In this document: in pieces, positions 985-5,491 of the stretch
Numbering within the stretch: the stretch's first letter is position 1
Layout: every line of letters starts with the position of its first letter
Origin: a virus
Lineage: Duplodnaviria > Heunggongvirae > Uroviricota > Caudoviricetes
Length of the DNA stretch: 22,019 nt
Virus record (IMG/VR): IMGVR_UViG_2585427746_000008
Reading direction: 5' to 3' (one strand)
Translations under genes and position numbers: made by a program
Notes under the pieces: generated by a model
What the model was told of the DNA's origin: nothing
Databases searched by the model: none
The model's input: only the letters and a program-made list of their open reading frames with translations

Positions 985-1085
985 AACAGGTGATCGATGA
1001 TTCTGGAGGTTGTTTAGTTTTGATACTGATTAAATAAAATCCGGTATAAAATTAAGGTATCGGCAACAAATTTGATACTGCACAT
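905..1085 (+). repeat. attL-like terminal region with repeated putative transposase-binding sites
   Basis: Direct copies of TTTGATAC(C/T)G at 924-933, 1019-1028 and 1071-1080, a near copy at 971-978, and inverted imperfect copies (cggtataaa 1042-1050, ggtatcgg 1056-1063). Also a 9-bp perfect inverted repeat atcacctgt/acaggtgat at 961-969 and 985-993. Confidence 0.6.
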
Positions 1086-1211
1086 ACTGCTTATGGACGT
1101 TTTTAAAAGTACTTAAAATGTCTTTTATGCTAAAAAGTTTATATCAATATCGATCTGGTCACAAATCAAGTTGAAAGTGCTCGCTAAGTGCATGGCCTGG
1201 GCTTCATGGGG

Positions 1212-1730
1212 TTACGCTTTGGCTTCTTTATGGGTTAAATTGAAATGATGATCCTTGGTTTCATCTCCCTCGAAAATCTCTCTAACCTTTTGATCTGATA
1301 AATTATTAAGGCTCAATGCTGCCAGGCGTCGAATACCTGTTAAAGCGATCAACTCTTGATTCTCTTGATTGCAGAATTCCAGCAATTTTTCTACCCCTTT
1401 CCTTCTCAAGGTGTAAATAACTAATTCTTGCTCTTCTTGGCTCAAAGTGTCGATGAGTTCGAGCAACTCGCTATTGCCACCGTTCTTTTGAGGGGGCTGG
1501 TGTTTTATTTCTGCACTACCTGTAATGATGGAAACAACATGTGCAGGTAAGTCGCTTAAACGGTAGGCAAATGCTCTCCCTCTGATACCAGGTGTAGTTA
1601 CCGAACGTTTTTCCCATCCTTCATTTTTTGCTCGTTTATGAAGCCCAGCCAGAGATGAAGGAAGACCTCCAACCCCCAACAAGTCACTGGCAAGGATCCA
1701 TTCTTGGTCAAGGATCATATCAAACTCCAT
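1212..1730 (-). CDS. Mu c-like repressor with N-terminal winged-helix DNA-binding domain
   Basis: Leftward ORF directly inside the left end, as in Mu. The motif LPSSLAGLHKRAKNEGWEKR is nearly repeated at the N-terminus of the transposase (LPSSLAGLHKKAKREAWKTR), the arrangement known for Mu repressor and MuA. The real start may be the second Met at 1718, which has a GGAG upstream. Confidence 0.75.
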   Translation of the reverse strand: MEFDMILDQEWILASDLLGVGGLPSSLAGLHKRAKNEGWEKRSVTTPGIRGRAFAYRLSDLPAHVVSIITGSAEIKHQPPQKNGGNSELLELIDTLSQEEQELVIYTLRRKGVEKLLEFCNQENQELIALTGIRRLAALSLNNLSDQKVREIFEGDETKDHHFNLTHKEAKA

Positions 1731-1946
1731 TTGATATTAACTTTTGTTTATATCTTTATGTGGTTTATTTCAAAAATAACTCAATAAAAAACAAATAGAT
1801 ACAGAGCAAATTTAAAAATTTGAAATTAACCAGTTGATATTTACTAAGTTAATATCTAACATATCAAACATACACTAGTGAGTAACTCAATAGAGTAGCA
1901 CACATGAGTAATAAAGTTTGCCATAGAAAGTACACAGGGGGCCATT
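1731..1946. promoter_or_regulatory. AT-rich early operator/promoter region between divergent repressor and ner
   Basis: Very AT-rich 216-bp spacer. Perfect palindrome CAAATTTAAAAATTTG at 1807-1822. Candidate rightward sigma70 promoter TTGATA-N17-TAACAT at 1834-1862, bracketed by inverted repeat TTGATAT (1834-1840) and ATATCAA (1861-1867). Confidence 0.5.
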
Positions 1947-2192
1947 GTGAGTCTTATTGAAGATTGGTCTTCCGCCGATATAAAGGCAGCCTTAGAAAAA
2001 CGCGATACCAATTTGTCACGTTTATCAAGGGAAAATAATTTGCAGCCTAGGACTTTGGGTAATGCTTTGCGAGTTCCCTACCCTAAAGGTGAAAAGATAA
2101 TTGCTAGGGCTATAGGTGTAGAGCCACAGGTTATTTGGCCTACTAGATATGAACGACGTGCGCGGAGGAAATATGTGGGTTGCAATGACTGA
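1947..2192 (+). CDS. ner: Ner-like DNA-binding protein (Ner/Nlp family)
   Basis: 81-aa ORF with GTG start as first gene of the early operon. Resembles Mu Ner in size, position and motifs (LSRLSREN..., PKGEKIIA, PQVIWPTRY versus Mu PKGEQIIA, PEVIWPSRY). Confidence 0.8.
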   Translation: MSLIEDWSSADIKAALEKRDTNLSRLSRENNLQPRTLGNALRVPYPKGEKIIARAIGVEPQVIWPTRYERRARRKYVGCND

Positions 2193-4257
2193 ATTGATTT
2201 CATTCAGTGACCTACCTAGTTCTTTGGCAGGTCTGCACAAAAAAGCAAAGAGGGAAGCGTGGAAAACGCGGCTAAAACCAGGGGTAAAAGGGAAAGTTTT
2301 AGAGTGTGAAATAGGGGCTTTGCCTTTAACTGTTCAGCAGGCAGTACGCGAACGCTATGCCCTGCAACTGATGACGCAAAAAGCCGATGAATCACCGGCT
2401 CCGGTAGTGACAAAGGCCAGGCGCTCACCTGCCGTGGTTGATGCGGTGGAGGCATATCGCGGATCACCACAACTGATGCTCGAACGCCTCAATGCCCTGA
2501 CTGAAAACCAGCGCCAGGTGGCTGATGCACGAATCGCGATCGTCAGCGAAGTTCTGAAAGTCGCGCAACAACCTGGTTTCAGCTGTGCGAAGGCTATCCG
2601 GTTTATCGTTGACAACCTGGCACGTTCGCAACTGGACGAGCGCATTGTGGCAATGGTTGAGACGGCGAACGCCAAAAAGGGAAACAGCCGTGCGTTGAGT
2701 GAAATCACGCTGAAACGCTGGATTGCAGCCTTTAACAAGGCGCAGAACGCCGCTGAACGCCTGCTTTTGCTGGCACCTGGTAAGCGCCAGGAAATAAAAG
2801 CCGAAGATATTAACTGGCTGCCCGAATTTCTGGCGCAGTATCGCCAGTCAAACGGCCGACCAATGACCGAGGCTTACGAGGATTTTGTCGCTGAATGGCA
2901 GCACCGGCACGCTGATGAGCCTTATATGCTCGATATCATGCCGTCTTACGACACCATCCGCCGCGCAATGAAGAAACTGCCGGAAGTGGTGAAACAAAAA
3001 GGCCGGGTGACCGGCAGTGAATACCGCCAGCTTGAGGGATTCACGCGCCGCGACTGGTCCAGAATGCCGGTGAATTATGTCTGGATTGGTGACGGTCACG
3101 GCATGAAGCTGAAATGCAGGCACCCGGTTCACGGGCGGCCATTTGCACCGGAAGTGACCTTTGTTATCGACGGTGGCACGCGCTTTGTGGTGGGCTGGAG
3201 CCTTGACCTGGCTGAAAATGTTTTCGCCGTAGCCGGTGCCATACAGTACGGTATTCGTAATCACGGCAAACCGTTTCTGTATTACTCGGATAACGGTTCC
3301 GGGGAAACCGCCGACATCCTGGATAAGGAAGTTGTGGGGATCCTGCCGCGACTGGGGATTAATCACCCAACCGGGATTGCCGGTAACCCGCAGGGACGGG
3401 GCATTATCGAACGGCTTAACCGCACGTTACCGATGCGTATAGCCCGTAAATACCGCACCTATTTCGGGAAAGGTGCAGATCGCGAGACGTTACGCAAAAC
3501 CAACCGCGATTTACGCTCGGCATTTACCGCCCTGCAACAGGGCAAACGGCTGAACGCCCGGCAACAGTCAGCGATGCGTGATTTACCGTCCTGGTCTGAA
3601 CTGATTGATGCCATTCGTGATGGCGTTGAGTGGTACAACAACCGGCCGCACGATGAATTACCCATGAAGCCGAACGGGAAGCATTACAGCCCGGCGGAGT
3701 TCAGAAAAAAACGCCTGGCAGAAGAGGACACGGAAATTGAATGGCTGTCCGATGTTGAGCTGCGGGATATGTTCCGGCCAATGGTGGAACGCCCTGTAAG
3801 ACGCTGTGAAATACGCTGGCTGAATAATATTTACTACGCGCCCGAGCTGAGTGATGAGCATGGCCGCAAGGTGCTTATCAGCTATGACATTCATGATGCC
3901 GAACGAATTACCGTACGTCGCCCGGATGGCAGCGTGATTTGCGAGGCGGTATGGGACGGCAATAAACGCGAAGCCTTCCCGGTCAGCGCGGAATACTACA
4001 AACAGCAGCAACGCCTTAAAGGTATGCGTAAACGCGCAGAGGAAAAAATCCGTGATGCCGAGGATGAGGTTGTCAACGTGCTGGAGCACAAGCCGCAGGA
4101 GCCCTGGCTGGAAAACATATACCGCCCTGTGGGTAATACGGTGACCGTTCAGCAACCTGCCGTTGATGATGAGCCTGATGAAGAATACGAGCGTAATTTC
4201 CAGCGGGGATTGCAGTTGCTCGAAGCGAAATTAAAAGAAAATGACCCTCTGGCCTGA
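2173..4257 (+). CDS. DDE transposase (MuA-like)
   Basis: Roughly 695 aa. N-terminal winged-helix motif shared with the repressor. Catalytic-core-like motifs VWIGDGHG, YSDNGSGE and GRGIIERLNRTL are consistent with a D-D-E triad. GGAGG lies 4 nt upstream of ATG 2173; the gene overlaps the ner 3' end. Confidence 0.9.
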   Translation: MWVAMTELISFSDLPSSLAGLHKKAKREAWKTRLKPGVKGKVLECEIGALPLTVQQAVRERYALQLMTQKADESPAPVVTKARRSPAVVDAVEAYRGSPQLMLERLNALTENQRQVADARIAIVSEVLKVAQQPGFSCAKAIRFIVDNLARSQLDERIVAMVETANAKKGNSRALSEITLKRWIAAFNKAQNAAERLLLLAPGKRQEIKAEDINWLPEFLAQYRQSNGRPMTEAYEDFVAEWQHRHADEPYMLDIMPSYDTIRRAMKKLPEVVKQKGRVTGSEYRQLEGFTRRDWSRMPVNYVWIGDGHGMKLKCRHPVHGRPFAPEVTFVIDGGTRFVVGWSLDLAENVFAVAGAIQYGIRNHGKPFLYYSDNGSGETADILDKEVVGILPRLGINHPTGIAGNPQGRGIIERLNRTLPMRIARKYRTYFGKGADRETLRKTNRDLRSAFTALQQGKRLNARQQSAMRDLPSWSELIDAIRDGVEWYNNRPHDELPMKPNGKHYSPAEFRKKRLAEEDTEIEWLSDVELRDMFRPMVERPVRRCEIRWLNNIYYAPELSDEHGRKVLISYDIHDAERITVRRPDGSVICEAVWDGNKREAFPVSAEYYKQQQRLKGMRKRAEEKIRDAEDEVVNVLEHKPQEPWLENIYRPVGNTVTVQQPAVDDEPDEEYERNFQRGLQLLEAKLKENDPLA

Positions 4258-4334
4258 AATAAAAAAATAACCCGAGCGGCGACTCAGGTTATTTGATTAA
4301 ACTCGGAGAACTGTCTCAACGCGAGGTGAATAAT

Positions 4335-5267
4335 ATGACCGATATAAACGATGTAATCAAGACCATTGATGAACTTATTGATGGCGGCGTGCTGACGCAG
4401 TATGCCATCGCCAGAGAGGCGGGAATTTCCGACGGCACATTATCGGCTTTCCGCAAGGGGAAATATAAAGGCGATAACGCCGCTGTGGCTGCTTCCCTGC
4501 GCTCCTGGTATGAGAACTGGAATAAACAAAGCGCACTGCCGGAACCGCCGCAGTTTGTGGAAACTCAGACAGTCCAGGAGCTGCGCGCACTGTTTCAGGC
4601 GGTTCGCCTGATGGGCTGTATTAACGTTATTGTGGGCGTACCGGGTGTGGGTAAAACGGCCACTGCCCGTAATTACTGCCAGGAGCAACCAAACACCTGG
4701 ATGATCACCCTGTCACCCGCGCACTCCAGCGTCACGGAGTGTCTGCTGGAGCTGGCCGATGCGCTGGGGATTGATTACACCCGCGCGAACAAAGGGGCAT
4801 TATCCCGCGCCATCCGCCGTCGCCTGATGGGAACGCGTGGACTGGTGATTGTGGATGAGGCGGATCATCTTGGTATTGACGGTCTGGAGCAACTCCGGGC
4901 AATTCAGGACGCCACGGGGATCGGGATGGTGCTTATTGGTAACCCGCGCGGATTGTTTAAAGGTGGACGCCGCGCCTTTGATGATTTATCGCGCCTGTTC
5001 AGCCGTCTTGCCCGTACAAAACAACTTCGCAAGGCCAAAAAGGCGGATGTGCTGGCCATTGCCATGGCGTGGGGGATCAGTGGTGAGGCTGAGCTGGCCG
5101 TCATGCAGGCTATCGCTGAAAAGCCGGGAGCGTTACGCGTTCTGACACATACGCTTAACCAGGCGTGGCTCACCGCCAGCGGTGAAGGCGCGGCGCTGAC
5201 AGAAAAACATATTAATGCGGCCTTTAAAGAGGTTTATACCAACCCTGAATTACTCTCACAGGTGTGA
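4335..5267 (+). CDS. Transposition helper ATPase (MuB-like AAA+)
   Basis: Walker A motif GVPGVGKT and Walker B motif VIVDEADHL. Lies immediately downstream of the transposase. GAGGTGA RBS precedes ATG 4335; the ORF track start at 4293 lacks an RBS. Confidence 0.85.
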   Translation: MTDINDVIKTIDELIDGGVLTQYAIAREAGISDGTLSAFRKGKYKGDNAAVAASLRSWYENWNKQSALPEPPQFVETQTVQELRALFQAVRLMGCINVIVGVPGVGKTATARNYCQEQPNTWMITLSPAHSSVTECLLELADALGIDYTRANKGALSRAIRRRLMGTRGLVIVDEADHLGIDGLEQLRAIQDATGIGMVLIGNPRGLFKGGRRAFDDLSRLFSRLARTKQLRKAKKADVLAIAMAWGISGEAELAVMQAIAEKPGALRVLTHTLNQAWLTASGEGAALTEKHINAAFKEVYTNPELLSQV

Positions 5268-5269
5268 TT

Positions 5270-5491
5270 ATGGCGGTATTTAATATTCCTGATATTTACG
5301 GACGCTTTTACCTGGTTAATTTCGATAACGTGAAGGTGATTTCACTGGCCGAAAATAAAGAATGTGGCGATTTACTTTTTGAATTTAATGACCGCACACG
5401 AATGGTGATATCTGCCGGACTTGATCGCGAAGGTGCGACAGAAGTTTACAGCGGAATATGCCGTTCTGTTGGTGCGAAACAAGTCAGCTAA
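5270..5491 (+). CDS. hypothetical small early protein
   Basis: ORF with AGGTG RBS 7 nt upstream of ATG 5270; start is tightly packed against the B stop codon. Confidence 0.5.
   Translation: MAVFNIPDIYGRFYLVNFDNVKVISLAENKECGDLLFEFNDRTRMVISAGLDREGATEVYSGICRSVGAKQVS

Follow-up and report, generated by a model that had tools for sequence, protein, structure and literature searches.

Between two divergently oriented genes of the window, by which we mean the whole 22,019-nucleotide stretch of DNA analysed here, lies a short AT-rich region (26% G+C vs 53% for the window) that a preliminary description had read as the control region of a Mu-like phage, with a palindrome and a promoter bracketed by inverted repeats as its operators. 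This raises the question of which elements in the region are likely to work as operators, which proteins would bind them, and how closely the resulting switch resembles those of phages Mu and D108.

Positions 1–906 of the window are the E. coli gene malX (100% identical), into which a Mu-like prophage is inserted, with its left end beginning at approximately 907 (TGTAACC...). In other E. coli, the prophage DNA from about 907 onward occurs at many different chromosomal sites (with ypdA, hyfF, yahO, torZ and meaB among the neighbours), and variable insertion sites of this kind are the signature of a transposable phage. The end itself contains a repeated 8-bp sequence:

907–1080, + strand: prophage left end, in which TTTGATAC is repeated three times (924–931, 1019–1026 and 1071–1078).

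We presume these three repeats to be the transposase end-binding sites L1–L3. TTTGATAC occurs four times in the window vs 0.41 expected, and the three-copy layout is also present in the FRIK804 and Salmonella P0013 loci. The prophage belongs to the Sp18 family of Mu-like transposable prophages and shares its backbone with Sp18 (Sakai) and Phi804-3 (FRIK804): the first 98 bp of its left end are 95% identical to theirs, and identity is 96.7% from 2335 onward. Sp18 and Phi804-3 are Mu-like prophages of Shiga-toxin-producing E. coli that are transposable and have variable insertion sites (PMC7430833, PMC10132054).

The early genes run in the order c, transcribed leftward, followed by the rightward series ner-A-B:

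1212–1718, − strand: gene for the c repressor (168 aa with the ATG at 1718 as start), in an open reading frame that stays open back to 1730.
1947–2192, + strand: ner gene, 81 aa, with a GTG start and GGGGG at 1936–1940 as ribosome-binding site.
2173–4257, + strand: Mu-type transposase gene A, whose N-terminal domain is encoded by the first ~54 codons (2173–2334).
4293–5267, + strand: MuB-like ATPase gene, third of the rightward ner-A-B series.

The early open reading frames fall into Pfam families PF02316, PF13693, PF09299 and PF09077. The c product matches PF02316 with a score exceeding the curated cut-off (E=1.6e-6), as well as PDB entries 1G4D (Mu repressor DNA-binding domain, E=4e-5) and 1TNS (MuA domain I-alpha, E=1.2e-4), and its N-terminal domain is a Mu-type winged-helix DNA-binding domain. 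The N-termini of c and A both match PF02316 and are 42% identical to each other over 55 aa (E=3e-14). Ner matches PF13693 (E=6.7e-27), Mu Ner (PDB 1NEQ, E=2.5e-17) and EnrR (7F9H, E=3.6e-16), and is 53% identical to Mu Ner by BLASTP (47% in a multiple alignment) and 56% identical to D108 Ner by tblastn (53% in a multiple alignment). A repressor gene had been placed at 1212–1730; the gene is there, although its start is more probably 1718 than 1730, because GGAG (1727–1724) lies 6 nt upstream and the RefSeq relatives are 168 aa long. The flanking genes thus show the families expected of a Mu-like control region for repressor and Ner, as the preliminary description had proposed, and window 1719–1946 is the divergent c/ner early control region, governing lysis and lysogeny, of a Mu/D108-type prophage.

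Early transcription toward ner would start from a conserved promoter:

1834–1862, + strand: early rightward promoter (the Pe equivalent), with −35 TTGATA at 1834–1839, a 17-nt spacer and −10 TAACAT at 1857–1862.

This promoter reads exactly as it had been reported earlier, agrees with the consensus at 9 of 12 positions, and holds a conserved position in the relatives. A consensus promoter scan alone is not significant (2 sites vs 3.5 expected), and 1834–1862 is the top rightward candidate, in the same alignment columns, in 8/8 aligned relatives and in Yersinia pekkanenii. Transcription is predicted to start near 1869–1870. Searches of the intergenic regions of the window and its relatives for a leftward c promoter returned no convincing or consistent candidate, those on the minus strand being weak and inconsistently placed (e.g., GTTACT-17-TATGTT).

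Comparative footprinting was applied to the intergenic regions of eight loci with repressors 37–99% identical to that of the window, and Y. pekkanenii was added later. This repressor family has few members, its 27 clusters coming from E. coli, Shigella, Salmonella and two metagenomic contigs, and Y. pekkanenii is one species representative that also carries it. An 11-bp motif, TTGAWATWWAC, emerged in five strong and two weak copies that form two clusters (1713–1773 and 1820–1858):

1713–1723, − strand: site 1 (weak), TTGATATGATC, two mismatches, overlapping the c start codon.
1731–1741, + strand: site 2, TTGATATTAAC, exact match, present in 8/8 aligned relatives, column identity 0.92.
1746–1756, − strand: site 3 (weak), AAGATATAAAC, two mismatches.
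1763–1773, − strand: site 4, TTGAAATAAAC, exact match, position kept in 8/8 relatives.
1820–1830, + strand: site 5, TTGAAATTAAC, exact match, present in all relatives, column identity 0.91.
1834–1844, + strand: site 6, TTGATATTTAC, exact match, its first six bases being the −35 hexamer, present in all relatives, column identity 0.91.
1848–1858, − strand: site 7, TAGATATTAAC, one mismatch, overlapping the first two bases of the −10 hexamer.

Five copies with at most one mismatch lie within 1700–1950 (251 bp), vs 0.2 expected, and none of 1000 local shuffles reached five. Moreover, an unbiased 11-mer seed search on the single sequence returned the same six sites (p ~0.02), and its family includes the weak site 1. 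That site occupies the same columns in 6/8 relatives, but is partly coding sequence; sites 1 and 2 flank the c Shine-Dalgarno sequence as an inverted pair. At or near the columns of site 3, stronger copies are found in S. sonnei (TAGATATTTAC) and Salmonella P0006 (TTGATATTTCC). Sites 5–7 (1820–1858) overlie the −35, the spacer and the −10 of the early promoter. Site 7 is the most conserved element (column identity 0.955), and with site 6 it forms a 21-bp near-palindrome, GATATTTACT-A-AGTTAATATC (1836–1856).

The strong copies keep their position and orientation in the eight relatives, with repressors as little as 37% identical, and their columns are 0.91–0.955 identical vs 0.69 for the spacer between the clusters. 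In Y. pekkanenii the layout is kept and every copy of the motif reads TTGAAAGMAAC; a concerted change of this kind is typical of co-evolving protein-binding sites and speaks against structure or IHF alone as the explanation. The c/ner region of the heteroimmune FRIK804 prophage holds only one near-copy. The TTGATAT that had been noticed earlier is the core of one copy of this motif; its repetition was missed in the preliminary description, as were the IHF-like site and the D108-like repeat described below, the latter situated within the 1731–1946 interval which that description covered.

The spacer that separates the clusters (1774–1819) is the most variable part of the region. It contains the 1807–1822 palindrome of the preliminary description and, upstream of it, an IHF-like sequence:

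1789–1801, + strand: IHF-like site AAACAAATAGATA, two mismatches to WATCAANNNNTTR, in the AT-rich spacer between the clusters.

In the alignment, P0026 and Y. pekkanenii carry a perfect IHF consensus at this position, and four other loci differ from it by one mismatch. The site lies 32 bp upstream of the −35, and its counterparts in Mu and D108, which are the only matches to the IHF consensus in their intergenic regions, lie 33 bp upstream of theirs (the Mu −35 was taken from the annotated promoter feature, and the D108 promoter is our own pattern match rather than an annotation). A second, perfect IHF consensus lies over the −35 itself, at 1827–1839 on the minus strand; it arises because sites 5 and 6 are juxtaposed, and it may be used.

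Between the promoter and ner, which encodes a Ner-family protein and is the first early gene, we found an inverted repeat related to one in D108, together with a further half-site-like copy and a conserved box:

1876–1905, + strand: imperfect inverted repeat TAGTGAGTAAC-TCAATAGA-GTAGCACACAT, putatively the Ner operator, built on the half-site GTGWGYWAC and lying 14 bp beyond the −10.
1903–1911, + strand: third half-site-like copy CATGAGTAA, with TGAGTAA repeated at 1879 and 1905, 26 bp apart.
1915–1930, no strand assigned: conserved 16-bp box AGTTTGCCATAGAAAG, located after the putative Ner operator and before the ribosome-binding site of ner.

The 1876–1905 repeat matches the perfect inverted repeat of D108, CCGTGAGCTAC-TTTATAGC-GTAGCTCACGG (D108 996–1025), which we take from work of the DuBow laboratory to be the D108 Ner operator, at 20/30 positions. 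A score of 20 was reached by 0/2000 shuffles (maximum 19, mean 14.1), and the best match to the D108 repeat falls at the same column in 5/8 relatives. The element is itself weakly symmetric (6/11 arm positions), and its spacer varies among the relatives. TGAGTAA is found twice in 1700–1950 vs 0.07 expected; in P0027 and Y. pekkanenii, both outer copies read GTGTAAC.

The 16-bp box belongs to a block (1914–1930) with a column identity of 0.875, in which TTGCCA is invariant in the eight relatives and reads TTGGCA in Y. pekkanenii. It stays nearly invariant even at a repressor identity of 37%, and is missing from the corresponding regions of Mu, D108 and FRIK804 (Sp18-type). We found no convincing RNA pairing or promoter for it. 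We suggest tentatively that the box could possibly provide this immunity type with a further, undescribed means of control: as the leftward c promoter that is otherwise missing, as a site for a host factor, or as a leader element acting on expression of ner/A. RNA structure in the early leader was considered and rejected, the consensus fold being weak (−5 kcal/mol), as was a 4-bp GCCA/UGGC leader stem, which rests on the conservation of a Trp codon and is disrupted in Y. pekkanenii. An Rfam search gave nothing above threshold, with one match at E=0.21, well below the gathering score.

In view of how the genes are arranged, of the conserved promoter and the clustered motif, and of the similarity to D108, we consider it likely that the region combines an operator, a transposition enhancer, an early promoter and a Ner operator, and works like the Mu/D108 switch; every assignment of a protein to a site is made by analogy. 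In Mu, two clusters of MuA sites with an IHF site between them make up the enhancer, which overlaps the operators O1–O3 that silence Pe (PMC3145075), and the Mu repressor shares homology with the transposase (PMC3820752). In a lysogen of the prophage described here, c would bind the TTGAWATWWAC sites co-operatively through its Mu-type winged-helix domain, on a first cluster (1713–1773) that spans its own ribosome-binding site and start codon and on a second (1820–1858) where it would occlude the early promoter and keep ner, A and B silent. IHF would bend the AT-rich spacer at approximately 1789–1801 and so bring the clusters together, and its bend may also stimulate the early promoter, as in Mu. 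After induction, transcription would begin near 1869, and Ner would bind 1876–1905, extending to 1911, damping early transcription and blocking leftward transcription of c. The N-terminal domain of the transposase would use the same two clusters as a transposition enhancer, and with transposase and repressor competing for the same clusters, we propose that the repressor would also block transposition directly.

Other readings of these sites have to be set against this one. In the reading closest to the preliminary description, the 1807–1822 palindrome is the repressor or Ner operator and the TTGATAT/ATATCAA pair is the other. Both elements do lie at those positions, but the palindrome, described as a perfect 16-bp one, is imperfect: CAAATTTAAAAATTTG and its reverse complement CAAATTTTTAAATTTG differ by two central mismatches, leaving 7-bp arms, CAAATTT and AAATTTG, around a non-symmetric AA (14/16 positions symmetric). 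Chance was judged by dinucleotide-preserving shuffles of 1731–1946, 16% of which hold a repeat with 7-bp arms and a spacer of at most 4, so that the 1807–1822 repeat is no better than chance; 26% carry at least two 7-bp inverted repeats of the kinds that had been described. The left arm has a column identity of 0.55 vs 0.76 for the whole intergenic region, reads TAAATCT in STEC299 and OkiPb01678 and GCGTGCG in RM9088, and differs in all more distant relatives. The right arm is better conserved (0.875), but only because it abuts and overlaps the conserved 11-bp site at 1820–1830, and from these comparisons we judge that the palindrome is not a functional unit. The second pair, TTGATAT (1834–1840) and ATATCAA (1861–1867), is present and complementary as reported, and its left arm, which is the −35 hexamer region and also site 6, is conserved (column identity 0.96). 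The right arm is not: its column identity is 0.58, it reads ATTCCAA in RM9088 and ATGGT-T in Salmonella, and it is lost in RM9088, S. sonnei and Salmonella despite an identical or near-identical promoter block. An exact 10-bp repeat of 1716–1725, CATATCAAAC (1860–1869), overlaps this arm and could be a lineage-specific extra half-site. Weighing these points, we regard operator function of the palindrome and the pair as very unlikely; the general reading of a repressor/Ner operator layout holds, but the two elements proposed as its operators are not conserved units. An explanation that does without any phage protein, in which the motif represents sites for IHF or another nucleoid protein, or AT-rich promoter architecture, draws on the low G+C content (26%), on TTGATW being the core of the IHF consensus, and on the perfect IHF consensus TATCAACTGGTTA formed by sites 5 and 6 together (1827–1839, minus strand), which all relatives keep with at most one mismatch. 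We nevertheless hold it to be very unlikely: conservation is as high outside the IHF core (WWAC) as within it, most copies have no correctly spaced YAA/TTR half, and the motif cluster is absent from the heteroimmune FRIK804 region. Furthermore, the change to TTGAAAGMAAC in Y. pekkanenii destroys the IHF core, while the separate IHF site there is a perfect consensus.

A reading with the two phage proteins exchanged, in which Ner occupies the TTGAWATWWAC sites, particularly the 21-bp near-palindrome, and the repressor occupies the downstream GTGAGTAAC-type repeats as an O3-like operator, deserves more weight, although we still think it unlikely. The near-palindrome of sites 6 and 7 (1836–1856) has the shape typical of small helix-turn-helix repressors, and ACT(A/T)AGTTAA in the promoter spacer resembles one half, ACTTAGTTAAAT, of the Mu 1029–1058 repeat, presumably the Mu Ner operator according to work from the laboratories of DuBow and van de Putte; in the GenBank record for Mu, only the segments on either side carry a label as part of a Ner binding region. 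Nor do the comparative data discriminate between c and Ner, since in every locus found c, ner and the transposase N-terminus have been inherited as one unit; among the loci searched, none pairs the same Ner with a different c or the reverse. We rejected ACT(A/T)AGTTAA as a Mu Ner half-site, however, since the whole Mu repeat matches the window at 16/30 positions, a score reached by 90% of shuffles, and the half-site geometry would differ. Seven copies in mixed orientation over 150 bp, up to the c start codon, fit the multi-site pattern of the Mu repressor and MuA rather than a single Ner site, and the downstream element shows a significant likeness to the D108 repeat, in geometry and position as well as in sequence. 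We therefore favor c and the transposase N-terminus on the two clusters and Ner on the downstream repeat.

Arranged in this way, the region resembles that of Mu in its divergent c and ner-A-B genes, about 0.8–1.0 kb from the left end, in two clusters of short sites split by an IHF site (Mu 947–959; window 1789–1801), in a promoter-proximal cluster that overlaps the early promoter with an inverted repeat just downstream of it, and in a repressor DNA-binding domain homologous to the transposase N-terminus. It differs in that the sites are without sequence similarity, the Mu 1029–1058 repeat matching at chance level, which bears out the earlier remark that the operator sequences are unlike those of Mu. 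In addition, the repressors are 32% identical over 53 aa only, the window has no O3-like copy of the 11-bp motif downstream of the promoter, and its 16-bp box is without a Mu counterpart. The likeness to D108 is closer in some respects: the repressors are homologous over their full length (27% identity), and the inverted repeats have the same 11+8+11 geometry, starting 14 bp after the −10 in the window vs 11 bp in D108. The D108 repeat, however, is a perfect palindrome and that of the window is imperfect, and in our own reading D108 has AAATCAT-like repeats in place of TTGAWATWWAC. Judged from sequence, the prophage would share its immunity with neither phage, the inverted repeat being related to that of D108 (20/30) but not the same. 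In a phage collection, this immunity region occurred in no record: none had a Ner more than 60% identical, and DNA matches were confined to the first ~90 bp of the end. The control region thus appears to be an uncharacterised, new immunity type of a well-known kind.

Comparison with other prophages shows cassette exchange. In Sp18/Phi804-3, the common type of Mu-like prophage in O157, an unrelated cassette with no DNA match takes the place of window 995–2334, between flanks that are 95–97% identical. In the window, this interval comprises c, ner, the control region in its entirety and the first ~54 transposase codons. Compared with FRIK804, the repressor has a different DNA-binding domain and only the C-terminal 90 aa are 40% identical, Ner is 32% identical (multiple alignment), and the repeats and the palindrome are different; the transposase is 29% identical over residues 1–50, whereas residues 51–694 are 90–100% identical. 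RM9088 and a Salmonella locus display the reverse exchange: they share the c/operator/ner module and A residues 1–50 (74–76% identical) with the window, while A residues 51–200 are 36–52% identical and the end repeats are ATTCAAGATAA or TTAGGGAYAA, not TTTGATAC. Both patterns indicate that the N-terminal domain of the transposase travels with c, the operators and ner, and that residues 51–200 follow the type of end repeat. Such travelling of the N-terminal domain with the operators is expected if the 11-bp sites double as a transposition enhancer, as in Mu (PMC3145075). A TTGATA core is common to the TTTGATAC end repeats and the operator sites; we rejected shared recognition of the two as a requirement, because the same operator module pairs with ATTCAAGATAA and TTAGGGAYAA end repeats.

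The region would add a third set of cognate sites to the classic pair of Mu and D108, in an immunity type that belongs to Mu-like prophages transposing in the genomes of Shiga-toxin-producing E. coli and Salmonella, and its natural cassette exchange displays the modular logic of transposase domains. It leaves the understanding of how such switches work unchanged; for studies of prophage mobility and induction, the site map indicates which positions to mutate and where the early transcript should lie. Of the two cassettes, that of the window is the rarer, found in 14 of 5426 complete E. coli genomes vs ~220 that have only the shared end. Three near-copies of the 11-bp motif also occur at 5232–5325, and these are not immunity-specific, since the heteroimmune FRIK804 prophage has them identically.

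The prophage interrupts malX, the gene for the PTS maltose transporter IICB: nucleotides 1-906 of the window are 100% identical to the intact malX of other strains, the phage end begins at about 907 with TGTAACC, and the right end of the prophage lies beyond the window. Behind this left end, window 995-2334 is an exchangeable immunity cassette. The heteroimmune Sp18/Phi804-3-type prophage of E. coli FRIK804 has no match to this segment, with cassette flanks that are 95-97% identical, and the cassette has its right edge inside the gene for the transposase, near codon 54. Among 5426 complete E. coli genomes, 14 carry the cassette, and about 220 share the end sequence only, without it.

The ATG at 1718, rather than 1730, is the probable start of the leftward repressor gene c; it yields a protein of 168 aa, and GGAG lies 6 nt upstream of it. 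An inverted pair, ATATCAAA (1717-1724) and TTTGATAT (1730-1737), flanks the c ribosome-binding site on both sides. Across the two immunity types, the repressors have a C-terminal region in common (40% identity over 90 aa, window 1212-1480 vs 3780-4050 of L005, the locus of the other type) and DNA-binding domains that are unrelated, and the repressor is therefore modular.

In the c/ner control region, a perfect IHF consensus, TATCAACTGGTTA, lies on the minus strand at 1827-1839, a candidate site that overlaps the -35 element of the predicted early rightward promoter. It arises from the 14-bp spacing between two putative operator copies of the 11-bp motif TTGAWATWWAC (sites 5 and 6), and is retained with at most one mismatch in all relatives. 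Further downstream, every relative keeps the AGTTTGCCATAGAAAG box at 1915-1930 almost unchanged, with TTGGCA in Y. pekkanenii; Mu, D108 and FRIK804 have no counterpart. Neither a promoter nor a stable RNA pairing was found to account for the box.

Copies of the 11-bp motif are also present outside the control region:

1137-1147, minus strand: exact copy, TTGATATAAAC, with the third end repeat on one side and the 3′ end of c on the other
5232-5325: three copies with one mismatch, within 94 bp, at the junction of the ATPase gene B and the next gene

The exact copy is limited to the closest relatives (the window and STEC299), and is missing from RM9088 and Salmonella. The three copies at the B junction probably do not serve the window's repressor as operators, because the heteroimmune FRIK804 prophage has identical copies.

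For the transposase, the most likely translation start is 2173 (MWVAMTEL), with a 20-nt overlap with the 3′ end of ner that matches the annotation of relatives, and a longer open reading frame from 2149 is probably unused. Comparison of the gene (2173-4257; loci L001, L006 and L008) indicates that residues 1-50 track the repressor/operator type, not the end-repeat type, and that residues 51-200 differ according to end-repeat type. Identity over residues 51-200 is 36-52% where the ends are ATTCAAGATAA or TTAGGGAYAA, and mostly higher with TTTGATACC ends, at 46-76% (68-76% for residues 101-200).
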